Positions 1-12,488 of a DNA stretch of 24,000 nucleotides are shown here, piece by piece. The DNA is from Pseudomonadota bacterium (GTDB lineage: Bacteria; Pseudomonadota; Alphaproteobacteria; JAAXGF01), in assembly GCA_022572945.1 (NCBI GenBank), contig JACZUY010000007.1:1-24000 (forward strand), written 5' to 3'. The translations under genes and the position numbers were made by a program. The notes under the pieces were generated by a model that saw only the letters and a list, made by a program, of their open reading frames with translations, made no database searches and had not been told where the DNA came from. How positions within the stretch are numbered: position 1 is the first letter of the stretch; each line of letters opens with the position of its first letter.

Positions 1-156
1 GCCGATCGTGCCGTGGCCGATGAGCGCGACCCGCGCGCCCAGCTCCGACGCGCGAATGGCCGCGGCAAAGCCGGCCGATCCGGCGCCGATCACCGCCAGG
101 TCGAAGCTCTCGCCGCCGCCGACGGTATCGCGACGGGTATCGGTTCTCTCGCTCAT
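1..156 (-). CDS. merA: Mercuric reductase MerA, first 52 codons only (gene continues past the window start); no N-terminal HMA (NmerA) domain
   Basis: My own minus-strand translation from the ATG at 154-156 gives MSERTDTRRDTVGGGESFDLAVIGAGSAGFAAAIRASELGARVALIGHGTIG. This is the FAD GxGxxG fold and is clearly paralogous (about 80% nt by eye) to the merA fragment at 500-610. An AAGGAA RBS lies just upstream, and the gene sits directly downstream of MerR-type promoter P1. The redox CxxxxC lies outside the window, so the merA call rests on the paralog and on context. Confidence 0.75.
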   Translation of the reverse strand, partial: MSERTDTRRDTVGGGESFDLAVIGAGSAGFAAAIRASELGARVALIGHGTIG

Positions 157-195
157 CTCGGTTCCTTTGCGTCCCCGCTCCTCGTCTCGCCACGA

Positions 196-226
196 TAGAT
201 AGTGCCTGTAGTAACTACAGGTTCAA
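196..226 (-). promoter_or_regulatory. MerR-type promoter/operator P1 (TTGAAC-19 bp-TATCTA) with perfect dyad CCTGTAGT-A-ACTACAGG, driving merA
   Basis: Read on the minus strand: -35 TTGAAC (221-226), a 19-nt spacer (202-220) holding the dyad at 205-221, and -10 TATCTA (196-201). A 19-bp spacer with a centred dyad is the hallmark of MerR-family activated promoters (Tn501/Tn21 PmerT). It aligns with P2 and P3 to give the consensus gCCTgTAcCAaCTACaGGTTCAAGg. Confidence 0.75.
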
Positions 227-661
227 GGCCCATCGGGTAACAAAATCGTGAACCGCGAGCCGCGCTGGCCCCTCGAGATAGGCGATGGTGTTGTAAGCCG
301 GCAGAAGATCGCTGTACTTCGACTGGCGCAGTCCGCTGACCAGCTCGTCCTTCTGGGCGACGAGAGCGCGCCAGTCCTCCAGGTCGGCCCGGCCGCGAAT
401 TCCGGCAAAGCGCGAGGCGGCCTCGGCCTGGTGGAGCGTCTCGGCGGCGCGGATGAGGGTCTTCGAGGGAACGCAGCCGACATTGACGCACGTGCCGCCG
501 ATGGTGCCGTGGCCGATGAGCGCGACCCGGGCGCCAAGCTCGGCCCCCCGGATCGCGGCCGAAAAGCCGGCCGAGCCGGCCCCGATCACGGCGAGGTCGA
601 AGCCTTCGCTCCCGCCCTTCGCGGCTTCCGGGCTGCAATCCGCGGGGCTTCCGCCCATCAC
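215..661 (-). pseudogene. merA: Truncated merA remnant (5' third only, 148 codons): FAD-binding fold plus redox-active disulfide, then loss of homology
   Basis: The ORF reads ...FDLAVIGAGSAGFSAAIRGAELGARVALIGHGTIGGTCVNVGCVPSKTLIRAAE...YLEGPARL, then unrelated residues. Its stop codon (215-217) lies inside the P1 operator dyad. GGTCVNVGCVPSK is the class-I pyridine nucleotide-disulfide oxidoreductase/MerA active site. Full MerA cores are roughly three times longer. The start is ATGA-coupled to the merF stop (658-661). Confidence 0.8.
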
Positions 662-909
662 GATTCCTCGGTTTCCGGGTTGGCTTGCGCCGTAACACGC
701 TGGGCAACCGGCACGCGCTTCGACCGGCGGTAAAGCGCGTAGCCGGTCAGGCCGAGAAAGAACGCCAGCGCGGGAAACAGCACGTAGTCGAGGTAGCCGA
801 CGATCGCCGACAAGCCGACCGCCGTCACCAAAACGACCAGCACCGGGGTGACGCAGCAGATCGCCATGACCACCGAGCCGGTGATCCCCGTGCCGAGAAG
901 CTTATCCAT
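658..909 (-). CDS. merF: Mercury transporter MerF (2-TM, vicinal Cys pair in TM1; C-terminal Cys pair absent)
   Basis: MDKLLGTGITGSVVMAICCVTPVLVVLVTAVGLSAIVGYLDYVLFPALAFFLGLTGYALYRR... closely follows the MerF pattern (LCCFTPVLV...GLSALTGYLDYVLLPALA). The start is taken at the ATG at 907-909, inside the longer listed ORF 658..1272. Confidence 0.8.
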   Translation of the reverse strand: MDKLLGTGITGSVVMAICCVTPVLVVLVTAVGLSAIVGYLDYVLFPALAFFLGLTGYALYRRSKRVPVAQRVTAQANPETEES

Positions 910-926
910 GGGAACACACCTCGCTT

Positions 927-1691
927 TCAAGTCCCGGCCAGCATCGGCGTGAAGATCGCCTTGCCGGCCTGAAACGCCTCGTCGATCGACAGCCGGATTC
1001 CGTTCAGGTCCGGGTAGTTGGCGCCGCGCCAGCGGTCCAGATGCGCGTCCGAGCAGAAGAACGTCATCACCGTGCACAGCGAGCTGGCGGCGCAGGCGCC
1101 GGCGTAACGCAGCCCGACCCAGACCACGGCGCCTTCGGGCGTCGCCCGGTCGAGCGCCGCGCCGCGGTCGCGGGTGATGATCTCGATCGCCTCGCCGCAC
1201 GCGCGGCAACTGGAGTGGATGGCGACATCGCGGTCGCACATCGCGCCGACGCCGAGCGCGTCGATCGCGCACATCGCGCTGACCGTCGTGCCGCCGAGAT
1301 CGACGCGATGCCCGGTGTCGCGTTCGGTGAAGGGATAGGCGCCGAGGATGGTTTCGCCAGCGTCGTCCAACAGGATCAGGTCGCGCCCCTTCAGCTGCTT
1401 GAGCAGGCCGCGCACGGCGTCGGACCCGAGACCGGTCACGTCGCCGAGCGCGGCGATCGACGGCGCGTGCCCCCTCGCGGCGTAATGGCGCAATACCGCG
1501 CGGCGAACCGTATCCTCCGCCTCGCCGATCCCGCGCCAGCGGTCCTCGAGGCTTGCCAGGTCGATGAAGGCGTCGACGACCGCGCGCGCCTTGTCCGAGT
1601 TCACCGCCGACCAGTCGGGAAAGATCGCGCCGGGCCCCAGCGGGATCTCGCGCGGCGATGGCGCGGCATCGACCGTTTGGTTGGCGGTCAT
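927..1691 (-). CDS. merB: Organomercurial lyase MerB (254 aa, with an N-terminal extension relative to classical MerB)
   Basis: SAMCAIDALG...HSSCRACG...SLCTVMTFFCSDAHLDRW...SIDEAFQAGK aligns with R831b MerB YAWCALDTLI...SHCAATG...SFCCHVHFFAS..EDW...SVHEAFGLG. This covers the positions of catalytic Cys96, Asp99 and Cys159. Confidence 0.8.
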   Translation of the reverse strand: MTANQTVDAAPSPREIPLGPGAIFPDWSAVNSDKARAVVDAFIDLASLEDRWRGIGEAEDTVRRAVLRHYAARGHAPSIAALGDVTGLGSDAVRGLLKQLKGRDLILLDDAGETILGAYPFTERDTGHRVDLGGTTVSAMCAIDALGVGAMCDRDVAIHSSCRACGEAIEIITRDRGAALDRATPEGAVVWVGLRYAGACAASSLCTVMTFFCSDAHLDRWRGANYPDLNGIRLSIDEAFQAGKAIFTPMLAGT

Positions 1692-1710
1692 TCGGGCGAA
1701 TCCCGCCGTG

Positions 1711-2001
1711 CTAGTCGCTCTCGACGAGCTCGGAGGGGAACCCGATCCCGGCGGTCGCCGCGGTCAGCGCGGCCACGTCGACGCGGTCGTCGTCGAACGT
1801 CACCACCGCGGACTGCTCGCGGTACGAGGTCGTCACCGCGACAACGCCCGCGACCCGTTCGAGCGTGCGCTGGACGATATAGGGGCACGTCGCGCAATAC
1901 ATCGGCACGCGCAACGTCACGGTGCGCTCGCGCGCAGCCGCGCCGGGAGCGCCGGCCAGCAACATCGCCGCGAGCGCCAGCGCAAAGAGCCAATGTTTCA
2001 T
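1711..2001 (-). CDS. merP: Periplasmic mercury-binding protein MerP (signal peptide plus HMA domain, CxxC motif MYCATCP)
   Basis: MKHWLFALALAAMLLAGAPGAAA (signal peptide) followed by RTVTLRVPMYCATCPYIVQRTLERVAGVVAVTTSYREQSAVVTFDD...ATAGIGFPS. This parallels Tn501 MerP (TVTLAVPGMTCAACPITVKKAL...REAVVTFDD...ATADAGYPS). There is an ATGA overlap with the upstream gene. Confidence 0.88.
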   Translation of the reverse strand: MKHWLFALALAAMLLAGAPGAAARERTVTLRVPMYCATCPYIVQRTLERVAGVVAVTTSYREQSAVVTFDDDRVDVAALTAATAGIGFPSELVESD

Positions 2002-2276
2002 TTCGTGCTCCCGTCCTCAGAGGTCCAACTATGCCGGCGCGACGTAGGGATACGCCGCCGCCGCAACGCGCCCGCGCCGCGTTTACCGCCGTGGATCAAC
2101 CCATAGGCGAGAACAGCGACGAGGAGGGCGACGCTCGCGGCGAGCACCGGATCAAGCCCGCCAAGCCACGCCCACAACCAACCGATCGCCCCAAGAACAA
2201 CAAAGGGGGCGACGCAGCACAGGATCATGAGCGCCGCGCCACCGGCGATGCCGGCGGTCTTGAGCAATTCTTTCAT
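1998..2276 (-). CDS. Small 2-TM membrane protein with a vicinal Cys pair in TM1 (MerF-like putative Hg transporter paralog)
   Basis: MKELLKTAGIAGGAALMILCCVAPFVVLGAIGWLWAWLGGLDPVLAASVALLVAVLAYGLIHGG... followed by a basic tail. The LCCxxP motif in the first helix is as in MerF/MerT. It lies between the HMA gene and merP, and its stop overlaps the merP ATG (ATGA). The start is taken at the ATG at 2274-2276 rather than the TTG at 2297. Confidence 0.6.
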   Translation of the reverse strand: MKELLKTAGIAGGAALMILCCVAPFVVLGAIGWLWAWLGGLDPVLAASVALLVAVLAYGLIHGGKRGAGALRRRRIPTSRRHSWTSEDGSTK

Positions 2277-2306
2277 CGCATGACCCCAAACAACCAAACG
2301 GCACCG

Positions 2307-2828
2307 CTACTGAATGACCAGTGAGGGGTAACCGTATTTCGCGGTGGCCGCGATCAGAGCGGCCACGGTCGTCTTCGATCGGTCGTACGTGACCACCGCT
2401 GTGCCCTCGCGTCCCGAAACTTTGGCCTCCAGCACGCCCGGAGTCCCGGTGAGCGCCTGGTGCACGAAATACGCGCAGGATCCGCACCACATGCCGTCGA
2501 CCTTGAGCGCCACGGTCTCGAGTGTTGGTTCCTGAGCCGTGGACGGCGCCGTGGACGACGGCGCGGAAGACGACAGAACGCCCGGTGCCGCCGCAATCTC
2601 CGACGTTGTCGGCGCGAACACCCCGAATTCGGCGAGACGGGCTTCAAGCTCTGCCGCTTGGGATGCGGGCGATTCCTCGACGGTGGGTGACGGCGCGGTG
2701 GACGGCGGAGTGCCGGAAACCGCTGCAACCTCGGAGGATGTCGGCGCCAGGACCCCGGATCCAGCGAGATAGGCGCCGATTGCCAAAATAACCGCTCCGG
2801 CTGCTGCGATCGCGTTCACGCGTCTCAT
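2307..2828 (-). CDS. N-terminally anchored (or secreted) heavy-metal-associated (HMA) domain protein with a long Ser/Thr/Pro/Ala linker; MerP-like second metallochaperone
   Basis: It starts with a hydrophobic N-terminus, MRRVNAIAAAGAVILAIGAYLAG. A roughly 90-aa low-complexity linker follows, with an internal repeat (VLAPTSSEVAAVSG... / VFAPTTSEIAAAPG...). The C-terminus is an HMA fold: TVALKVDGMWCGSCAYFVHQAL...GTAVVTYD...ATAKYGYPS. Confidence 0.75.
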   Translation of the reverse strand: MRRVNAIAAAGAVILAIGAYLAGSGVLAPTSSEVAAVSGTPPSTAPSPTVEESPASQAAELEARLAEFGVFAPTTSEIAAAPGVLSSSAPSSTAPSTAQEPTLETVALKVDGMWCGSCAYFVHQALTGTPGVLEAKVSGREGTAVVTYDRSKTTVAALIAATAKYGYPSLVIQ

Positions 2829-2841
2829 TATCGGTTCCTTT

Positions 2842-3270
2842 TCATTCGACCCCGAGCAGGGCAGGCACGGCGTAAGGAAACGCCATGGCCGCGATGACCA
2901 GAACTGTCGAAGACCACAAAACGACCTTGTTGACGCGGTCGATTCCGGGCGCGGCGCAAGCGGCGCCGGACGCGCACTCGTCCGCCTTCGGTTTGCGATA
3001 AACCATATAGAACCCGCCGGCGATGAACCCGGCCGCGGGCACGAAGAAATACCATTTGTAGGGGTAGAGCGCCGTGAGCGTTCCGAGCCACGCGCCGCTC
3101 AGCCCCAGGCTGAACAGCGCCAGAGGCAAGACGCAGCACAACGACACCGCCAGCACGCCGAGGATGCTGCCGCCGGCGAAGACTCTTTTCTTGGTTTCCT
3201 CATCGACAGTGGTATCGGCCCGAGCCAAGCGTGGGACGTACCGGGCTGTCGAAGGATTTTGGTCGGACAT
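2842..3270 (-). CDS. merT: Mercury transporter MerT
   Basis: ...GGSILGVLAVSLCCVLPLALFSLGLSGAWLGTLTALYPYKWYFF...YRKPKADECASGAACA...VLVIAAMAFPYAVP matches Tn501 MerT (ACCLGPLVLIALGFSGAWIGNLTVLEPYRPIF...AACKPGEVCA...). The start is taken at the ATG at 3268-3270 (GGAG RBS upstream, downstream of P2), not at the listed upstream start at 3336, which would lie inside the promoter. Confidence 0.85.
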   Translation of the reverse strand: MSDQNPSTARYVPRLARADTTVDEETKKRVFAGGSILGVLAVSLCCVLPLALFSLGLSGAWLGTLTALYPYKWYFFVPAAGFIAGGFYMVYRKPKADECASGAACAAPGIDRVNKVVLWSSTVLVIAAMAFPYAVPALLGVE

Positions 3271-3301
3271 TGGCACTCCGGTAATCCTCGACATTCTGGC
3301 C

Positions 3302-3332
3302 AATCTAATGCCTATACCAGCTACAGGTTCAA
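3302..3332 (-). promoter_or_regulatory. MerR-type promoter/operator P2 (TTGAAC-19 bp-TAGATT), imperfect dyad CCTATA-N5-TACAGG, driving merT and the operon behind it
   Basis: Minus strand: -35 TTGAAC (3327-3332), 19-nt spacer (3308-3326), -10 TAGATT (3302-3307). It aligns base for base with P1 and P3. Confidence 0.7.
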
Positions 3333-3464
3333 GCATATTTCCTGGCGATAACGAATTCGTGAAGCGACGTATTCGCGCCAGGCGGCCTCGGCGATCACCA
3401 AGGCCACCGAAGTTCCCATGGGGCGGACGTGGACATCACATGAGTCATCCTCTTGCACAAGGTA

Positions 3465-4256
3465 TCAGCGCCGTCCCAGGGACGCGCGGGCGCGATACAT
3501 CGGCAGGAGCATGCGAAAGACCAGCCACCAAAGGACGACGCCCGCGGCGAACAGCGCGAGCAATATCTGCCACGACAAGTGTTCGATCTGGTCGCCCATG
3601 ACGACCATAAGGATGGTCATTGGGAGGATCCCTAGCCCCGTCGCCCAGGTGAATGTGAGCCACGAGATTTTGGTCAGACCCGCCGCGTAGTTGATGAGAT
3701 TAAACGAGATCACCGGCAGGAAGCGGCTCAGAAACAACATGCCGCCGCCCTGGCGCGCCGCCCAGTCGTCGAGCCGCGACAGTTGTTTGTCGGGCACCAT
3801 GACCTCGACAAACGGGCGCCCCAAGAGGCGCGACAGCCCGAACGCGAGATAGGCGCCGAGCATGGCCCCCGTCCAGGTGATCACGGTGCCCCAAAACGCT
3901 CCATAGATCATGCCGTTGGCAAGCGCCACGAACTCGGCGGGAAACGGAATGAACGAATGGACGACCATCAGGCCGATCGACGCGCCAACGCCCCACGGCC
4001 CCCATGACCTCACCAGCTCTTCAAACGCTGCTACCGAGACGCCTTCGTCGCCGAATATCCACATGTCGCCCACGAACACGCCCACGGCCAGGGCGCCGAC
4101 GATCACGATTACGAGGGCGGTGGCGACAAGGCGTTTTCGCGCCAACCAGGCCGATGGCTCGCGTCTCTGTTCGTGCGCCGACGCCGCGGCCCGCCGGTTC
4201 GCCGTTGCTTCCTCGCGCGGGCCTTCGTCGCGCGGGTATGATGAATTTTTGCCCAT
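3465..4256 (-). CDS. TVP38/TMEM64 (DedA superfamily, VTT/SNARE-associated domain) integral membrane protein
   Basis: 263 aa. The charged N-terminus is followed by several TM segments. The characteristic stretch reads ...HSFIPFPAEFVALANGMIYGAFWGTVITWTGAMLGAYLAFGLSRLLGRPFV...FLSRFLPVISFNLINYAAGLTKIS... and is typical of the PF09335 family. I saw no cysteine in it. A GGGAG RBS lies upstream and promoter P3 lies immediately upstream of that. Confidence 0.75.
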   Translation of the reverse strand: MGKNSSYPRDEGPREEATANRRAAASAHEQRREPSAWLARKRLVATALVIVIVGALAVGVFVGDMWIFGDEGVSVAAFEELVRSWGPWGVGASIGLMVVHSFIPFPAEFVALANGMIYGAFWGTVITWTGAMLGAYLAFGLSRLLGRPFVEVMVPDKQLSRLDDWAARQGGGMLFLSRFLPVISFNLINYAAGLTKISWLTFTWATGLGILPMTILMVVMGDQIEHLSWQILLALFAAGVVLWWLVFRMLLPMYRARASLGRR

Positions 4257-4274
4257 TCGTTGCTCCCGACTGTT

Positions 4275-4305
4275 AACATAAACCCTGTACCAACTACGGG
4301 TTCAA
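4275..4305 (-). promoter_or_regulatory. MerR-type promoter/operator P3 (TTGAAC-19 bp-TATGTT), dyad CCTGTA-N5-TACGGG, in the divergent merR / TVP38 intergenic region
   Basis: Minus strand: -35 TTGAAC (4300-4305), 19-nt spacer (4281-4299), -10 TATGTT (4275-4280). It lies between divergent merR and the TVP38 gene, exactly where the mer operator sits in Tn21/Tn501. A plausible overlapping plus-strand merR promoter has its -10 at CATATT (4308-4313). Confidence 0.75.
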
Positions 4306-4349
4306 GGCATATTTTGAACAAAACCGCCGCAGAAGGATCGTCGTATCGC

Positions 4350-4757
4350 TTGACCATCGGTGAGCTGTCGAAGCGCACCGGCTGCATCATCGAGACGATC
4401 CGCTATTACGAACGCATTGGGGTCATGCCCGCGCCGCCGCGCACCGCCGGCGGTCACCGGATTTACGACCGCGACCATCTCAAGCGGCTCAACTTCGTCC
4501 GCCGCGCCCGCGCGCTGGGGTTCACGCTCGATCAGGTGCGCGGGCTGCTGGCGCTCGCCGACGAGCGCGAAACCTCGTGCGCCGAGGTCGAGAGGCTGGC
4601 GCGCGCCCAGCTCGATCAGGTGCGCGCCCGCATCGACGATCTCGGGCGCATGGAAGGCGTGCTCGACGAGATGGTGGCGCGCTGCGCCGGCGGCAGCGTC
4701 CCCGAGTGCCCGATCCTCGAGGCCCTGTTCGACGGCGGCGACGAGGGCGTGGGCTAG
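4350..4757 (+). CDS. merR: Hg(II)-responsive transcriptional regulator MerR
   Basis: LTIGELSKRTGCIIETIRYYERIGVMPAPPR (MerR-family HTH) ...RETSCAEVERLA...RMEGVLDEMVARCAGGSVPECPILEAL. This aligns with Tn501 MerR HCEEASSLA...[28 protein letters not shown], so the three Hg-ligand cysteines (Cys82/Cys117/Cys126 equivalents) are present. The start is uncertain because there is no in-frame ATG or GTG. TTG at 4350 (AAGGA RBS at 4333) is preferred; TTG at 4314 is the alternative. Confidence 0.85.
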   Translation: MTIGELSKRTGCIIETIRYYERIGVMPAPPRTAGGHRIYDRDHLKRLNFVRRARALGFTLDQVRGLLALADERETSCAEVERLARAQLDQVRARIDDLGRMEGVLDEMVARCAGGSVPECPILEALFDGGDEGVG

Positions 4758-4778
4758 CGACATTGGCGGCGGAAGCGG

Positions 4779-4818
4779 TTGACAGGCGTTGAATCAGTAA
4801 CTACGTTTTTGTAGTTAC
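4779..4818 (+). promoter_or_regulatory. Putative brnA promoter (TTGACA-17 bp-TACGTT) overlapped by the perfect palindrome GTAACTAC-N6-GTAGTTAC
   Basis: TTGACA at 4779-4784, 17-nt spacer, TACGTT at 4802-4807. The 8-bp perfect inverted repeat arms lie at 4797-4804 and 4811-4818, 24 nt upstream of the brnA ATG. This is a typical autoregulatory operator layout for RHH antitoxins. The -10 match is weak. Confidence 0.45.
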
Positions 4819-4841
4819 ATCGAACTGATACCTCCGAGCCT

Positions 4842-5138
4842 ATGAAGAAGGCGGGTTCTAAATCGCTGACCCGGAAGCAGAAGGCGGAGCTCGAGGCGCT
4901 GGCGGCGCTGCCCGACGACCGGATCGACGTGAGCGACATCCCCGAGGTCCGCGATTGGTCGGGCGCCAAGCGGGGCCTTCTCTACCGTCCGGTGAAGAAG
5001 CAGCTCACGTTGCGCGTGGACGCGGACGTCGTCGCGTGGTTCAAGGAGCACGCGCGCGGCGGCCGCGGCTATCAGACCGACATCAACCGCGCGCTTCGCG
5101 AACACGTCGGCCGGCGCGAGAAGCTGGCCGGCCGATAG
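4842..5138 (+). CDS. brnA: BrnA-family (CopG/RHH-like) type II antitoxin, with no cognate BrnT toxin gene
   Basis: MKKAGSKSLTRKQKAELEALAALPDDRIDVSDIPEVRDWSGAKRGLLYRPVKKQLTLRVDADVVAWFKEHARGGRGYQTDINRALREHV matches the BrnA_antitoxin pattern (D..ID.SDIPE......RPVK.Q.T.R.D.DV..WFK....GYQT.IN..LR..V). Only 84 bp separate it from the merR stop, so there is no room for the upstream brnT normally present. Confidence 0.8.
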   Translation: MKKAGSKSLTRKQKAELEALAALPDDRIDVSDIPEVRDWSGAKRGLLYRPVKKQLTLRVDADVVAWFKEHARGGRGYQTDINRALREHVGRREKLAGR

Positions 5139-5148
5139 CCCGGCGGCT

Positions 5149-5226
5149 TGCGCCGGCGGCAGCGTCCCCGACTGCCCCCTCCTCGACGCACTGTTCGACG
5201 GCGGCGACGAGGGCGTGCGCTCGTAA
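5149..5226 (+). pseudogene. merR: Displaced 3'-terminal remnant (last 25 codons plus stop) of a second merR
   Basis: It translates to CAGGSVPDCPLLDALFDGGDEGVRS*, compared with intact merR 4683-4757, CAGGSVPECPILEALFDGGDEGVG*. There are about 6 mismatches in 73 aligned nt. No upstream merR sequence precedes it; homology stops at about 5148. Confidence 0.85.
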
Positions 5227-5415
5227 AGGGTGGGCTTGGCTGGGTCTCGACCAGCGCCGCCGATGGCCGCTCGGTGTCAGAAGTGGACCAAGGTTGGCTC
5301 GGATTGCTTCTCGCGGTTCAGCTCGTCGAGAAACGATCGGACACCATCGCGGCCCACCCCGGCGGCATTGCCAGAGCAGAATGCCCGCTCGTCCGGGCCC
5401 CCGCGACGCGTAATA

Positions 5416-5580
5416 CCGGATTTCAAAATGAATGGATCAGGTTTGAAATCCGGAGCCTGCGCCCCCTTTGATCGCAATAATTGCGGGCTGCCGCTTATGC
5501 GGCCAGGTTTTGATCAATGTAACGTTTGGCCTGCGTGGCGTTTGAACGCAGCAATTTCACAAAAATTGTGACATTGCGTA
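5416..5580 (-). repeat. Mosaic intergenic element, copy A (inverted relative to copies B, C and D)
   Basis: Hairpin CCGGATTTCAAA/TTTGAAATCCGG (5416-5427 / 5442-5453). Core ...CCCTTTGATCGCAA..., small hairpin GCCGCTTATGCGGC, and stem CTGCGT/ACGCAG. Hairpin GCAATTTCACAA/TTGTGACATTGC (5551-5577). It is close to 90% identical by eye to the reverse complement of 19036-19197, and it ends 5 nt past the tldD stop. Confidence 0.85.
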
Positions 5581-5585
5581 TGAGC

Positions 5586-7019
5586 CTACACCGCGGCGCC
5601 GCCGACGGTGAGGCCGTCGATCAGGAGCGTCGGCAGGCCGACGCCGACGGGCACGGTCTGGCCGTTCTTGCCGCAGGTGCCGATGCCGGGGTCGAGCGCC
5701 ATGTCGTTGCCGATCGCCTTGATCCGCGTCAGCACGTCGGGGCCGTTGCCGATCAGCGACGCGCCCTTGACCGGGGCACCGACCTTTCCGTCCTCGATGA
5801 GGTACGCTTCGGAAGCCGAGAACACGAACTTGCCCGAGGTGATGTCGACCTGGCCGCCGCCGAAGTTGACCGCATAGAGCCCGCGCTTGACGCCGGCGAT
5901 GATCTCCTCGGGGTCGCGATCGCCCGACTCCATGAAGGTGTTGGTCATGCGCGGCATGGGCGCGTGCGCGAAGCCCTGGCGGCGGCCGTTGCCGGTCGGC
6001 TTCATGCCCATCAGCCGGGCGTTCTGGCGGTCGTGCAGATAGCCGGTGAGAACGCCGTCCTCGATCAGCACCGTGCGTTCGGTGGGCGTGCCCTCGTCGT
6101 CGACCGTGAGCGAGCCGCGGCGGTCCGCAATCGTGCCGTCGTCGATGACGGTCACGCCCGGCGCGGCGACGCGCTCGCCCATGAGCCCGGCGAAGGCCGA
6201 GGTCTTCTTGCGGTTGAAGTCGCCCTCGAGGCCGTGGCCGATCGCCTCGTGCAACAGGATCCCCGGCCAGCCCGGCCCCAGCACGACCTGCATCTCGCCC
6301 GCCGGCGCGGGCACCGATTCGAGGTTCACCAGCGCCTGCCTGAGCGCCTCGTCGACCTGGGCCTGCCAGTGCCCGGGCTCGAAGTAGGCGTGATACGAGC
6401 CGCGCCCGCCGGCGCCGTCCGAGCCCGATTCCATGTGCTCGCCATCGGCCACGACGACGTTGACGTTGAGCCGCACGAGCGGGCGCACGTCGCCCACCCG
6501 CGCGCCGTCGGCGCGGACGATCTCGACCGCCTGCCACTCGCCCAGGAGCGACACCATGACCTGGCGGACGCGCGGATCGCGCCCCCGGGCGTAGGCGTCG
6601 ATGTCGGCGAGCAGCTTGACCTTGGCGGCGAAGTCGACCTCGTTCAGCGGGTTGGCGTCGTCGTAGAACGCCTGGTTGGTGCGCGCGGGGCCGGCGCCCG
6701 CCGCGCCCCCGTGGCCGGTGCGCACCGCCTGCACGGTTCGCGCCGCGCGGCGCATCGCCGCTTCCGACAGCTCGGAGGCGTGGGCGTACCCGGTCGCCTC
6801 GCCCGAGACCGCGCGCAGGCCGAAGCCCTGCGTGGTGTCGAAGCTGGCGTTCTTGAGCTTGCCGTCGTCGAAGGCGAAGCTCTCGGATTGGCGGTACTCG
6901 AGGAACAGCTCGCCGTCGTCGGCGCCGGCGAGCGCCTCGGCGACGATCCCCTCGACGCGGGCGCGGTCGAGACCGGCGCGGGTGAAGAACAGCTCATCGG
7001 CGCTCGGATAGGCGGTCAT
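5586..7019 (-). CDS. tldD: Metalloprotease TldD
   Basis: ...ELFLEYRQSESFAFDDGKLKNASFDTTQGFGLRAVSGEATGYAHA...LLHEAIGHGLEGDFNRK (HExxxH zinc motif)...TCGKNGQ.VPV. It is co-linear with E. coli TldD. The ATG at 7017-7019 is preferred; a GTG at 7031 is possible. Confidence 0.9.
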   Translation of the reverse strand: MTAYPSADELFFTRAGLDRARVEGIVAEALAGADDGELFLEYRQSESFAFDDGKLKNASFDTTQGFGLRAVSGEATGYAHASELSEAAMRRAARTVQAVRTGHGGAAGAGPARTNQAFYDDANPLNEVDFAAKVKLLADIDAYARGRDPRVRQVMVSLLGEWQAVEIVRADGARVGDVRPLVRLNVNVVVADGEHMESGSDGAGGRGSYHAYFEPGHWQAQVDEALRQALVNLESVPAPAGEMQVVLGPGWPGILLHEAIGHGLEGDFNRKKTSAFAGLMGERVAAPGVTVIDDGTIADRRGSLTVDDEGTPTERTVLIEDGVLTGYLHDRQNARLMGMKPTGNGRRQGFAHAPMPRMTNTFMESGDRDPEEIIAGVKRGLYAVNFGGGQVDITSGKFVFSASEAYLIEDGKVGAPVKGASLIGNGPDVLTRIKAIGNDMALDPGIGTCGKNGQTVPVGVGLPTLLIDGLTVGGAAV

Positions 7020-7089
7020 CGGCTTGCCCACTGATCGACACGAGGGTGCGTCCGGCGCGGACGCACACCGGTAACATAAAGCATTAGTC

Positions 7090-7229
7090 GTTCACCTTTA
7101 CACAATAAAGGTGAACCGCGTTCAATCGCCACGCGGGCTTCCGCCGCATAAGCGGCGGCCCCCATTTGTTGCGATCAAAGGAGGCGCGGGCTGGCGTAAT
7201 CCGAACGAATGGAATCGTTCGGATTACGC
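7090..7229 (+). repeat. Mosaic intergenic element, copy B (in the divergent tldD / ctaC intergenic region)
   Basis: Hairpin GTTCACCTTTA-cacaa-TAAAGGTGAAC (7090-7116). Stem CCGCGT..ACGCGG. Hairpin CCGCCGCataaGCGGCGG. Core CCCCCATTTGTTGCGATCAAAGGAGGCGCGGGCTG. A 15-bp perfect hairpin GCGTAATCCGAACGA-atggaa-TCGTTCGGATTACGC (7194-7229). The module order is the same as in copy C, but both terminal hairpins have different sequences. Confidence 0.8.
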
Positions 7230-7567
7230 TTTAGGGGCGCGATCGGGCGAAGCAAACCTTCGACATCCGCGGCGGCGGCGGGGCGCCGGCGGAGGTCCCG
7301 AAGCCCTCGCGCAGGGCGAATGAAACTCCGCTGAAATCGCCCGAAAAGGCGGTCGAGACCGCGGGCTCGCGGTCTTGTGGTTGGCGGTTCCGTGTTGTAC
7401 GTTCCGAGCGGCGGAGCGCCGTCGACGGGGCCCAGCAGGGAGCACAGGTTCACGAACCGCGTCGGTGCCTGGGCGGGCCGCAGCCTTTGGCGCGAAGCCG
7501 TCGATCCAGCATTGCCGGCGGAGGCGTTATTCGTGGCCGATCATCCGCTTCGGGGAGATCGCGGGAC

Positions 7568-8420
7568 GATGTCGCTTAACGGCAAAATTTTTGGCCTCGC
7601 GGCCGCCGCATGGTCGATGACGTTCGCCGCCGCCGCCAACGCCGGCCAGCCGGTGCCCTGGCAGATCGATTTCCAGGAAGCCGCGACGCCGGTCATGGCG
7701 CAGGTACAAGACTTCAACACCACGATTTCGGTCGTGATCGTTCTCATCAATTGGTTCGTGATCGCCTTGCTGGTCTACGTCATGTGGCGGTTCAACGCCA
7801 AGCGCAACCCGACCCCGTCGAAGACCACGCACAACACGCTGATCGAAGTCGTGTGGACGGTGGCGCCGATCATGATTCTGATTATCATCGCCGTCCCTTC
7901 ATTCCGGCTGCTCTACTTCCAGGACCGCGCCGTCGACGCCGAGATGACGATCAAGGCGGTCGGCAACCAGTGGTACTGGACGTACGAGTACCCGGATCAC
8001 GGCGGATTCGAGTTCGATGCGCTGATGATTCCCGACGACGAGATCGGGCCCGGCCAGGTCCGCCTGCTCGAAACCGACAACCGCATCGTGGTGCCGGTCG
8101 ACACGTCGATCAGGTTGCTGGTTACCGCCGCCGACGTGATTCACGCGTGGGCGGTGCCCGCCTTCGGCGTCAAGGTCGACGCGGTGCCTGGACGCCTCAG
8201 CGAAACCTGGTTCCGGATCGAGCGCGAGGGGGTTTATTACGGCCAGTGCTCGGAACTCTGCGGCGTCTATCACGGCTTCATGCCGATTGCCGTCGAAGCG
8301 GTGTCGAAACAGGCGTTCACCGCCTGGGTCGAACGCGCCAGGCAGGAGTTCGCGCTCGACGACGCGCGCGCCGCGACGACGGTGGCGCAGGCGCGGACTA
8401 AAGCGGTTCAAGGTCGATAG
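7568..8420 (+). CDS. ctaC: Cytochrome c oxidase (aa3) subunit II
   Basis: Signal-like N-terminus MSLNGKIFGLAAAAWSMTFAAAANA, two TM helices, and the CuA motif HAWAVPAFGVKVDAVPGR...CSELCGVYHGFMP. The start is taken at the ATG at 7568; the 64 codons upstream in the listed ORF do not look like coding sequence. Confidence 0.9.
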
Positions 8421-10058
<1,638 letters not shown>

Positions 10059-10088
10059 CCGCGGCGGCACCACCAACGCGAGGCCCAC

Positions 10089-11009
10089 GTGACCGATCAG
10101 ACCATTGCGCTCGACCCACCCGTCGGCAGCGGCGGCGGCGCCGACGCGGGCGTGGCCGATTACATCGCCCTGCTGAAGCCGCGGGTGATGTCGCTGGTGG
10201 TGTTCACCGGCTTCGCCGGGCTGTATCTCGCGCCGGGCTCGCTGCACCCGGTTCTCGCGTTCGCCGCCATCCTGTGCATCGCCGTGGCGGCCGGCGCCTC
10301 GGGCGCGATCAACATGTGGTACGACCGCGACATCGACGCCCGCATGGCGCGCACCCGCGGCCGGCCGATTCCTGCGGGCCGGATCGAACCCGGGGCGGCG
10401 CTCGGCTTCGGCGTCACGCTCGCGGTGGGATCGGTCGTGGTGATGGGTCTCGCAGTCAACGCCGTGGCGGCGGCGTTGTTGGCGCTGACCATCGGCTTCT
10501 ACGTGTTCGTCTACACCATGTGGCTCAAGCGGCGGACGCCGCAGAACATCGTCATCGGCGGCGCCGCCGGGGCGTTCCCGCCGATGATCGGCTGGGCCGC
10601 GGTGACCGGCGACGTAAGCCTCGCCGGTGTGATGCTGTTCGCCATCATCTTCGTGTGGACGCCGCCGCATTTCTGGGCGCTGTCGCTCTACCGTGTGAAA
10701 GACTACGCCAACGCCGGCGTGCCCATGCTGCCCGTGGTCGCGGGCGCGGCAGCGACCGAGCGCCATATCCTGGCGTATGCCCTGGTCCTGTTCCCGGTGG
10801 CGCTGGCACCGGCGTTGCTCGGCGTCGCCGGACCGGTCTACGCGATCGGCGCGGCGCTCCTCGGCGCGGCGTTCGTGGTCTGCGCGATCCGCGTGCAGGG
10901 CGATTCGACGCACCGCGAGGCGCGCCGCATGTTCGGCTTTTCGATCGTCTATCTGTTCATGATCTTCATGCTCTTGCTCGTCGACAAGGGCCTCGGCGGC
11001 GTGGGCTGA
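10089..11009 (+). CDS. ctaB: Protoheme IX farnesyltransferase (heme O synthase)
   Basis: UbiA-family polytopic protein with [16 protein letters not shown], the [19 protein letters not shown] motif, and [14 protein letters not shown] start. Confidence 0.9.
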
Positions 11010-11010
11010 T

Positions 11011-11658
11011 ATGGCGGTCACCGGGCATCACGGACGCCGACGCGGCAAGATCGTTACCGTGGCCGCCCTGGTGGCGGTCCTCGCCGGCATGGGCGGGCTC
11101 ACTTACGCCGCGGTGCCGCTTTACCAGCTGTTCTGCCGGGTGACCGGGTTCGGCGGCGCCACCCAGGTCGCCGAGGCCGCGCCCGAGACGATCGCCGACC
11201 GCGTCATCACCGTGCGCTTCAACACCGACGTCGGCCGCGACATGCCGTGGCGCTTCCGGCCACCGCAACGGCCGATGACGGTGCGCGTCGGCGAGGTGGC
11301 GATCGCGTACTTCAGCGCCGAGAACCCGTCGGACGAGAGCGTGACCGGCACCGCCGTCTTCAACGTCACGCCGTTCAAGGCGGGTCCATATTTCGCGAAA
11401 ATCGCGTGCTTCTGCTTCGACGAGCAGACGCTGGCGCCGGGCGAGCGGGTCGAGATGCCGGTGACGTTCTTCATCGACCCGGCGATCATGGACAACGTCA
11501 ACGTCGATGATGTCAACACCATCACGCTCTCCTACACCGCCTTCCGGGTGGCGGGCGCGAAGGCGCCCGAACCGGTGGCGCTGAACCGGCCGCGCGGGGC
11601 GCGACCTGCGCCCGCGCATGATGAGGCTTCAAGGCGGTTGTTGAAGGGACCGACGTGA
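11011..11658 (+). CDS. ctaG: Cytochrome c oxidase copper assembly protein CtaG/Cox11
   Basis: Single TM anchor, [15 protein letters not shown], and the copper-binding CFCF motif ([16 protein letters not shown]). Confidence 0.9.
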
Positions 11659-12488
11659 TGGTCGAGAGGCAGGCCAGGGCGCACGAATACCATCTCGTCG
11701 ACCCGAGTCCGTGGCCGGCGGTCGGCGCGTTTGCCGCGCTCGTCATCGCGGCCGGCGGCATCCTGCTGATGCACGGCATCGCCGACTGGCCCTTCTACCT
11801 CGGCGTGCTGCTGGTGCTGTTCTCCATGTTCGGCTGGTGGCGCGACGTCATCCGCGAGGCCGAGTTCGAGGGCCACCACACGCCGATCGTGCAGCTCGGG
11901 ATGCGCTACGGCATGGCGTTGTTCATCGCCTCGGAGGTGATGTTCTTCGTCGCCTTCTTCTGGGCCTTCTTCGACGCCAGCCTGTTCCCCGGCGGCGCGG
12001 GCAGCGAGGAGATGATCGGCCGCGCCGCGTACACCGGCGGGGTGTGGCCACCGACGCACATCGAAGCCTTCAACGCGTTCGAGATCCCGTTCGTCAACAC
12101 GCTGATCCTCCTGACCTCGGGAACCACGGTGACCTGGGCGCATCACGAAATCCGCGACGGCGACCGCGCGCGCGCGATCTTCGCGTTGTGGCTGACGATC
12201 CTCCTCGGCATCAGCTTCACCGCGCTGCAGGCTTACGAGTACGTCCATGCCCCGTTCGACTTCACCGGCGGCATCTACGGCTCGACGTTCTTCATGGCCA
12301 CCGGCTTCCACGGCTTCCACGTCATCATCGGCACCTGCTTCCTGTCGGTGTGCCTGTGGCGGCTCTACCAGGGGCATTTCCGGCCCGACCACCATTTCGG
12401 CTTCGAGGCGGCGGCATGGTACTGGCACTTCGTCGACGTGGTGTGGCTGTTCCTGTTCAGCAGCGTCTACTGGTGGGGCGGCGGCTGA
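11658..12488 (+). CDS. ctaE: Cytochrome c oxidase subunit III
   Basis: [12 protein letters not shown]..., [54 protein letters not shown]. The ATG overlaps the ctaG stop (TGATG). Confidence 0.92.

Follow-up and report, generated by a model that had tools for sequence, protein, structure and literature searches.

The stretch of DNA analysed here (the window) comprises the first 24,000 nucleotides (nt) of contig JACZUY010000007.1, from a Pseudomonadota assembly (GCA_022572945.1), and contains a mercury-resistance (mer) locus in which a gene for a DedA-superfamily membrane protein lies directly opposite the regulator gene merR. The mer operons of Tn21 and Tn501 have a divergent layout, with merR transcribed to one side of the operator-promoter merOP and merT to the other. 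At our locus merR is on the forward strand (4314..4757) and the position that merT holds in those operons is taken, as the sequence-only reading of this DNA had noticed, by a dedA-like gene on the reverse strand (3465..4256; hereafter dedA), whose ATG is separated from merR by 57 nt. A MerR-type operator-promoter, P3 (4275..4305, reverse strand), leads into dedA, and merT is found behind dedA with a second such promoter of its own.

The dedA gene encodes a protein of the TVP38/TMEM64/YdjX type, predicted to reside in the inner membrane, an assignment that draws on its open reading frame, Pfam, the names of its homologues, an AlphaFold2 (AF2) model and codon substitution rates. Translation from ATG 4256, which has a GGGAG 8 nt upstream, yields 263 residues. 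GenBank holds a 226-residue version from a Proteobacteria metagenome-assembled genome (MCH9018951.1, “TVP38/TMEM64 family protein”), identical to residues 38-263 but annotated from an internal start; because the 37 N-terminal residues that it lacks are conserved among homologues, the 263-residue form is more likely to be the true product. Membership of the DedA/TVP38 proteins, which had been proposed from the letters alone, was borne out by profile search: the Pfam family VTT_dom (PF09335, gathering cut-off 33.9 bits) matched residues 105-223 over its whole length (model positions 1-123 of 123) with 95.9 bits and an E-value of 3.2e-27, and no other Pfam family matched. Homologues in JGI, NCBI and RefSeq are named “YdjX (TVP38/TMEM64 family)” rather than DedA, YqjA or UptA, and the NCBIfam UptA models gave 47 bits (cut-off 250) and 23.4 bits (cut-off 300). 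Because of these names, and because the UptA scores are far under their cut-offs, profile and homologue evidence together place the protein in the COG0398 (TVP38/TMEM64/YdjX) branch of the superfamily. It is not a member of the MerT, MerC, MerF, MerE or MerH families, as VTT_dom is its sole Pfam family and it has no cysteine pair.

An AF2 model built with 33 homologues is all-helical (mean predicted local distance difference test score 79), with breaks in the helices at residues 101-106 (HSFIPFP) and 178-184 (RFLPVIS). These breaks fall at the HSFxPFP and RFxP motifs, which are invariant and include P104, P106 and P181. Searches of the Protein Data Bank gave no match at E<=1 for the sequence (phmmer) and nothing better than E 1.5 for the model (Foldseek). 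Across the 33 homologues 51 alignment columns are invariant, and the residues invariant in the family are all kept in the mer-linked proteins; when we looked in the latter for clade-specific substitutions that might supply metal ligands, we found only conservative exchanges (V/I, Y/F, S/A, L/W, L/V and F/L). The protein contains no cysteine at all, as the sequence-only reading had reported. The argument which that reading built on the observation, that thiol-relay uptake of mercury would be unlikely, carries little weight, because most family members are likewise without cysteine (74 of the 120 best homologues), and for the same reason we rejected the idea that the cysteine-free state is an adaptation to mercury.

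P3 has its -35 element (TTGAAC) at 4305-4300 and its -10 element (TATGTT) at 4280-4275, between the dedA ATG and the probable TTG start of merR at 4314. The two elements are separated by a spacer of 19 base pairs (bp), inside which is a 7-3-7 dyad, CCCGTAG-TTG-GTACAGG, with five of seven positions complementary. Two further promoters of this architecture are present on the same strand: P2 (3302..3332; TTGAAC, 19-bp spacer, TAGATT) before merT and P1 (196..226; TTGAAC, 19-bp spacer, TATCTA, with a perfect 7-3-7 dyad) before a second merA gene. A pattern scan for the operator found these three sites (4284-4305, 3311-3332 and 205-226) in the 24 kb and no match in 100 dinucleotide-preserving shuffles. 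P3 does have the hallmarks of a MerR-regulated promoter, and its operator is also found at genuine mer genes of the locus. The earlier description of P3 as matching the other two promoters almost base for base was too generous: over 31 nt it is identical to P2 at 24 positions and to P1 at 23, and it is the architecture that is shared. Similarly, the description of dedA as monocistronic is not established, because a terminator scan detected no canonical intrinsic terminator between the dedA stop codon and P2. Folding of the RNA of 3300-3480 (reverse strand) gave only a GC-rich 12-bp hairpin without a U-tract (3381..3408), which might stabilise the RNA or act as a weak terminator. A promoter of its own, P2, is nevertheless clear for merT.

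The regulator matches Pfam MerR_1, MerR-DNA-bind and MerR, and has cysteines at positions 89, 124 and 132; in the Hg(II)-sensing MerR the ligand cysteines are Cys82, Cys117 and Cys126. Its best NCBIfam family is TIGR02051 MerR, at 122.5 bits, which is below the cut-off of 150.85; the CueR and CadR families score almost as well. Among solved structures its closest relative is CadR, with all three cysteines aligned to ligand cysteines, followed by the MerR proteins of Bacillus and Tn501. Because the regulator resembles CadR and MerR equally closely, the case for mercury as the inducer rests on the presence of its operator at the merT, merP, merB, merF and merA genes. Beyond merR, its last 80 nt (4676-4755) are repeated at 5142-5221 with 89% identity, and the two copies flank a solitary antitoxin gene, brnA (4842-5138, Pfam BrnA_antitoxin), which is preceded by a palindrome, GTAACTAC-N6-GTAGTTAC; no brnT toxin gene is present beside it in the region 4676-5221.

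The same layout, with merR and dedA diverging from a MerR-type operator, recurs in six further metagenomic loci, which were found solely by looking up the contigs of the top protein hits. Expressed as whole-gene identity to the window proteins, DedA in these loci ranges from 64 to 93% and MerR from 70 to 95%. The closest is L012 (DedA 93%, MerR 95%), in which a second operator behind dedA leads into merT. L050 (65% and 80%) and L051 (64% and 87%) are arranged in the same way, as is L048 (68% and 77%), where an HMA-domain gene follows merT. L041 (68% and 76%) has merB beside merR, and the operator behind its dedA leads into a gene for a secreted protein. Lastly, L049 (70% and 70%) likewise has an operator behind dedA. 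Throughout the six, dedA lies behind the elements TTGnnn and TAnnnT, separated by 19 bp, with a dyad complementary at 5-7 of 7 positions, and wherever a contig extends beyond dedA another operator of the MerR type comes next, ahead of merT or whichever gene follows. Orthologues compared with the window gene have ratios of nonsynonymous to synonymous substitution rates (dN/dS) of 0.31-0.52, values by which dedA is under purifying selection. By neighbour joining, mer-linked copies lie on both sides of the deepest split in their clade.

Two observations on these loci concern the promoter behind dedA. In L041 (region 2319-2684) this promoter is nearly identical to P1, and the secreted protein that it drives has no detectable family. 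Also, comparison of sequences revealed a palindrome, TTCACGAATTCGTTA, upstream of P2 (3349..3363, reverse strand). Its general form, TTCACGA(A/T)TTCGT(G/T)A, occurs 10-15 nt upstream of the -35 element at the merT-type promoters P2 and P1 (at ~240-255 for the latter) and upstream of the second promoter in L012, L041, L048, L050 and L051; no copy precedes the dedA promoter. It could be the site of a second regulator or a relic.

How far does the association extend? Homologues with 50-71% identity had no mer genes nearby in the ~30 loci inspected, their annotated neighbours being metabolic or housekeeping genes (acyl-CoA dehydrogenase, PEP carboxylase, fumarase, CheR and cbb3 oxidase). Among the species-representative genomes of GTDB there were eight homologues, all with 71% identity or less and none linked to mer genes, and a metagenome scan gave 25 loci with 69% identity or less, again with none linked; a scan of viral contigs found no dedA homologue. 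The expectation that such genes would be met repeatedly near merR thus holds in part: six more loci have the arrangement, each with its own operator, but it is confined to one clade. Because the layout recurs in these loci, we conclude that, as far as gene order can tell, the merR-dedA association is conserved, but within one narrow clade only. The recurrence of the same arrangement across seven loci is also why dedA looks like a real, undescribed accessory of mercury resistance. The sequence-only reading had held that a DedA role under mercury stress would be new. A full-text literature search, from whose coverage most subscription journals were absent, found no paper that ties mer operons or MerR regulation to DedA, TVP38, VTT or SNARE-associated proteins.

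The remainder of the mer locus, all of it on the reverse strand, is well populated. Behind P2, merT (2842..3270; Pfam MerT, E = 2e-21, and NCBIfam MerT) probably starts at ATG 3270, which follows a GGAG, in an open reading frame that reaches 3336. Next come a membrane-anchored HMA-domain protein of 173 residues that resembles MerP (2307..2828; Pfam HMA, NCBIfam MerP 64 bits), a small MerF-like membrane protein with a CC motif (1998..2276; a weak NCBIfam trans_MerF match of 22.6 bits against a cut-off of 50), merP (1711..2001; Pfam HMA, NCBIfam MerP 78 bits), merB for alkylmercury lyase (927..1691; Pfam MerB, E = 1e-34) and merF (658..909; Pfam Transport_MerF, E = 1.7e-20, and NCBIfam trans_MerF, 94 bits against the same cut-off of 50). 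The gene for the 173-residue protein has an internal duplication of ~92 nt, at a spacing of 132 nt, in its Pro/Ser/Ala-rich linker. A truncated merA' (215..661) then encodes the first ~140 residues of the MerA core without an NmerA domain, matches only positions 1-116 of the NCBIfam MerA model and has a reading frame that passes straight into P1. Behind P1 is the 5' end of the second merA (1..156, ATG at 156, translation MSERTDTRRDTVGGGESFDLAVIGAGSAGF...), which continues beyond the window. The two merA starts are 83% identical (1-120 versus 497-616), and the locus has the appearance of two mer operons joined together. In addition to MerT, two MerP-type and two MerF-type proteins are encoded.

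On its other side the locus adjoins tldD (5586-7031) and then the cytochrome c oxidase cluster ctaC-ctaD-ctaB-ctaG-ctaE, the whole occupying 5586-12488. The tldD gene is ~78% identical to those of Shinella, Sinorhizobium and Paracoccus. A megablast search of plasmids with positions 1-8000 matched only tldD and a 100-bp stretch of merA, and no known plasmid or transposon was recovered. Because core chromosomal genes flank it, we place the mer locus on the chromosome of an alphaproteobacterium-like genome.

A nested subclade of the dedA tree, 75-81% identical (L009-L011, L038-L040 and L047), has a different setting. There a regulator of the ArsR/HTH_20 type precedes dedA, a rhodanese gene adjoins it, and downstream are genes for a Cu,Zn-superoxide dismutase (Sod_Cu), a membrane protein with the motif LCCTPLVP, AhpC/redoxin, or a protein of the ScsC type (a ScsC_N domain gene in L038). 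The LCCTPLVP protein, at 3902-4468 of L009 and also in L010 and L011, is a polytopic protein of 188 residues that matches no Pfam family; its gene lies between those for Sod_Cu and AhpC/redoxin in the ArsR-linked dedA operon, and the motif recalls the cysteine pair of MerT and MerF. These ArsR-linked loci share with the window and L012 the 12 nt before the dedA ATG. Alignment of the regions downstream of dedA also revealed a conserved tail of ~55 nt after the stop codon (3408..3462, reverse strand), in which the window, L012, L047, L038 and L040 have GAGGATGAnTCATGTGnTGTCCACGTCC in common, and in L009 the same GGAGGATGAATCATG begins the Sod_Cu gene. The tail is, by this alignment, a remnant of the ribosome-binding site and ATG of sodC from the ArsR-linked sister loci. 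Since the window and L012 copies share both flanks with those loci, we conclude that dedA has been exchanged, as a cassette, between two regulons for metal(loid) and redox stress, with the breakpoints directly at its ribosome-binding site.

More distant homologues (28-56% identity) were inspected in 11 plasmid contexts, 10 of which are copper, mercury or thiol-disulfide islands. On Acidiphilium plasmids a CueR-like regulator is followed by the TVP38 gene, with a second DedA gene on pACMV1; on Burkholderia plasmids the neighbours are ECF sigma/NrsF genes and bufferin operons, to which bglu_2p of B. glumae adds merA, merC and merR. Halomonas pHAL1 has a metal regulator, a P-type ATPase, DsbG, TVP38, DsbE, Lgt and DsbD-N, with CcdA also found in Halomonas, while D. 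shibae has rhodanese, VTT, CDF and DUF411 and a Jiella plasmid has DsbA, CcdA, TVP38 and VKOR. Rubrobacter and Rhodococcus have islands with DUF305, a P-type ATPase and CsoR, and on IncC plasmids a bufferin operon precedes a fusion of TVP38 to an FAD-dependent oxidoreductase. In the eleventh context, a Klebsiella record, the genes behind a pair of the ydjX/ydjZ type encode an AhpD-like protein, an ABC transporter and a sulfurtransferase. Away from these plasmids, a DsrE-like gene neighbours the COG0398 gene of L018. The function and substrates of the COG0398 branch are not yet known, its members have been reported as essential in Caulobacter and Dinoroseobacter, and the TVP38-FAD-oxidoreductase is its commonest fusion (PMC10127716).

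The existence of such fusions had been mentioned in the sequence-only reading, correctly, together with the idea that their reductase is MerA-like, which did not hold. The fused reductase scored 364.6 bits against the MerA cut-off of 454.45, its best family is NF004991 (“FAD-containing oxidoreductase”), its disulfide centre is CLNTGC (CxxxxC) and its C-termini (...YQAWMRRS and ...FHQWSLGR) contain no cysteine and thus lack the pair of MerA. By score and motif it is a generic class I disulfide reductase and not MerA, and because of this the fusions do not show an association with mer; we rejected them as proof of a link to MerA. Bufferin operons are documented copper defences (PMC11626156), and since the fusion genes directly follow bufferin operons (DUF2282-DUF692-DUF2063-DoxX) at 20010-22220 of L045 (B. 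glumae bglu_2p) and 6794-8938 of L053 (a Salmonella IncC plasmid), their position suggests that the fusion belongs to a copper-stress bufferin module. Behind the IncC fusion come another FAD oxidoreductase gene and genes for a YnjBCD-like ABC transporter.

What, then, could a DedA protein contribute to a mercury-resistance locus? Taking operator and recurrence together, we conclude that dedA is a conserved member of the MerR-type regulon of one uncultured Proteobacteria lineage. The account that we favour, with moderate confidence, is that a COG0398 DedA protein became a separate MerR-controlled unit between merR and merT and protects the cell envelope via the ordinary reaction of its family. 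MerR would bind the 7-3-7 dyad within the over-long 19-bp spacer of P3, and Hg(II)-bound MerR would distort that spacer, realign the -35 and -10 elements and switch dedA on, with the genes from merT to merA, which have the same operator, induced at the same time. The DedA product would move an endogenous substrate, amphipathic and lipid-like or linked to sulfur or thiols, over the inner membrane, and the extra, mercury-induced dosage of a housekeeping DedA function would support envelope and membrane homeostasis under attack by a thiophilic metal. Unlike MerT, MerF and MerC, the protein would not be an importer that relays Hg(II) between cysteines. Because its invariant core is the same as that of the housekeeping homologues, it probably performs the normal reaction of the family, and the 50-71% homologues, with their metabolic neighbours and lack of mer genes, point to a housekeeping origin. 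The settings of its relatives, namely the ArsR-linked sister loci and the metal or thiol-disulfide islands of the plasmids, speak for a role under stress.

Several considerations weigh against this account. The regulation of dedA has been read wholly from sequence, and specificity for mercury is itself deduced for a regulator that falls under the NCBIfam MerR cut-off and has CadR as its closest solved relative. Envelope homeostasis is assigned by association, because no substrate is known for any COG0398 protein (PMC10127716). The association with merR does not extend beyond one small clade, for which most of the sequence comes from metagenomic contigs of 1-3 kb, and dedA moves between regulons, as a loosely selected passenger also would.

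Could the DedA product instead carry mercury itself, in the form of Hg(II)-thiolates or lipophilic organomercurials and without a cysteine relay, either as uptake that feeds MerB and MerA or as export? The gene does have the canonical merT position and the same operator, merB is present in the window and adjoins merR in L041, DedA proteins transport amphipathic molecules (PMC10193950; PMC10127716) and the frequent fusion of COG0398 domains to cytoplasmic reductases of the disulfide type (PMC10127716) would fit delivery of a substrate to a reductase. However, the fused reductases lack the C-terminal cysteine pair of MerA, the window protein has neither cysteines nor metal ligands specific to its clade and keeps the core of its housekeeping homologues, close relatives are found with ArsR-type and CueR-type regulators and copper genes rather than with mercury alone, and the locus already encodes MerT together with two MerF-type and two MerP-type proteins; we therefore regard a mercury carrier as unlikely. 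A more specific version of the envelope-protection idea has a sulfur or thiol compound as the substrate, or a more general part for the protein in thiol-disulfide upkeep in the periplasm, with a reductant or ligand that buffers Hg(II) or Cu(I) supplied as a result; this seems to us slightly less likely still. Its attraction lies in the neighbours: rhodanese beside the sister clade and in D. shibae, the sulfurtransferase and AhpD-like protein with the ABC transporter and ydjX/ydjZ-type pair of Klebsiella, DsbG, DsbE, DsbD-N and CcdA in Halomonas, DsbA, CcdA and VKOR in Jiella, ScsC_N in L038 and DsrE-like in L018, as well as the fusions to class I disulfide reductases with their CLNTGC active site. 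All of this is association, though, for transport of sulfur compounds or thiols has been demonstrated for no COG0398 protein, and on the short contigs at hand the mer-linked loci contain no rhodanese or Dsb gene.

Alternatively, dedA may be a passenger, a mobile cassette recombined behind a duplicated mer promoter, perhaps co-induced by mercury and adding nothing to tolerance. The mosaic nature of the locus, with its truncated merA', two merA starts, three promoters and a duplicated merR 3' end around brnA, would suit such an origin, as would the cassette-like exchange implied by the 12 nt before the ATG and the ~55 nt after the stop codon that are common to ArsR-linked copies. Set against this, all seven loci, whose proteins are as little as 64% identical, have the arrangement and have kept the operator, the gene is under purifying selection and the deepest split of the clade has mer-linked copies on both sides; because of this conservation a neutral passenger is unlikely. 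A bolder proposition is that COG0398 DedA proteins in general are transporters tied to the chemistry of thiophilic metals and sulfur, and that the mer-linked clade moves, without cysteines, either conjugates of Hg(II) or organomercury with thiols or a thiol or sulfur ligand. We give it little credence; if true, it would mean a new class of mer transport function and the first clue to a substrate in the subfamily.

To return to envelope protection by an ordinary DedA reaction, why would a MerR-controlled gene of this kind matter? The mer operons are a textbook case of metal resistance whose catalogue of genes (merR, D, T, P, C, F, E, G, H, A and B) is considered nearly closed, and a conserved DedA gene under MerR would add a function other than transport by thiol relay. 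It would also offer a tractable genetic handle on the COG0398 branch, which is widespread, sometimes essential and without a known substrate, in the form of a copy that is inducible, non-essential and wired to mercury and that has relatives accompanied by ArsR- or CueR-type sensors and thiol-disulfide genes. In addition, the threefold reuse of one operator-promoter module shows how a mer regulon may grow by promoter duplication and cassette capture.

Compared with the mer operons of Tn21 and Tn501, the locus has the divergent merR, the promoter with a 19-bp spacer, dyad half-sites with a CCGTA-like sequence and merT, merP, merF, merB and merA genes in common. It differs in that the first gene behind the operator is of the DedA family and not merT, which has a second copy of the operator-promoter 1 kb downstream, in that the dyad is 7-3-7 and not 7-4-7, and in a regulator below the MerR equivalog cut-off that is as close to CadR. 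E. coli YdjX and YdjZ and other COG0398 proteins share the Pfam domain, subfamily naming and conserved core motifs of the window protein, which is ~30-40% identical to the enterobacterial YdjX/YdjZ copies, and sulfurtransferase and AhpD-like neighbours recur for genes of that type; unlike dedA, which lies in a MerR regulon, those are housekeeping or uncharacterised genes and are not known to be regulated by metals. UptA and PetA (COG0586), which flip undecaprenyl phosphate and phosphatidylethanolamine, respectively, are the only bacterial DedA proteins with experimentally supported activity (PMC10193950; PMC10127716). They share superfamily and domain with our protein but belong to a different subfamily, PetA being in the UptA-like clade (PMC10193950), so that their substrates are not transferable and lipid-carrier flipping of the UptA/PetA type was rejected as its class. 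The TVP38-FAD fusions also contain a COG0398 DedA domain, at their N-terminus, and occur in metal-stress islands, that of B. glumae ~13 kb from merR, merC and merA; the window protein differs in being unfused, and the DedA domains are just ~30-35% identical.

Two further groups of genes invite comparison. The extras of copper islands (ScsC, DsbG, DsbE, CcdA and Lgt), among which TVP38 genes sit on Halomonas pHAL1 and the Jiella plasmid, are stress-island copies of housekeeping envelope functions near metal sensors, as dedA may be, but their products, unlike that of dedA, are enzymes (thiol-disulfide or lipoprotein) whose chemistry is known. The MerT, MerC, MerF, MerE and MerH transporters use a cysteine pair. 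Like merC, merE, merF, merG and merH, dedA encodes a small inner-membrane protein inside a mer locus and is predicted to be induced by mercury; its product, however, has no such pair, and there is no sequence relationship to any of the five. Overall, this is a mer regulon with an accessory gene that has not been described before, although the family of its product is known.

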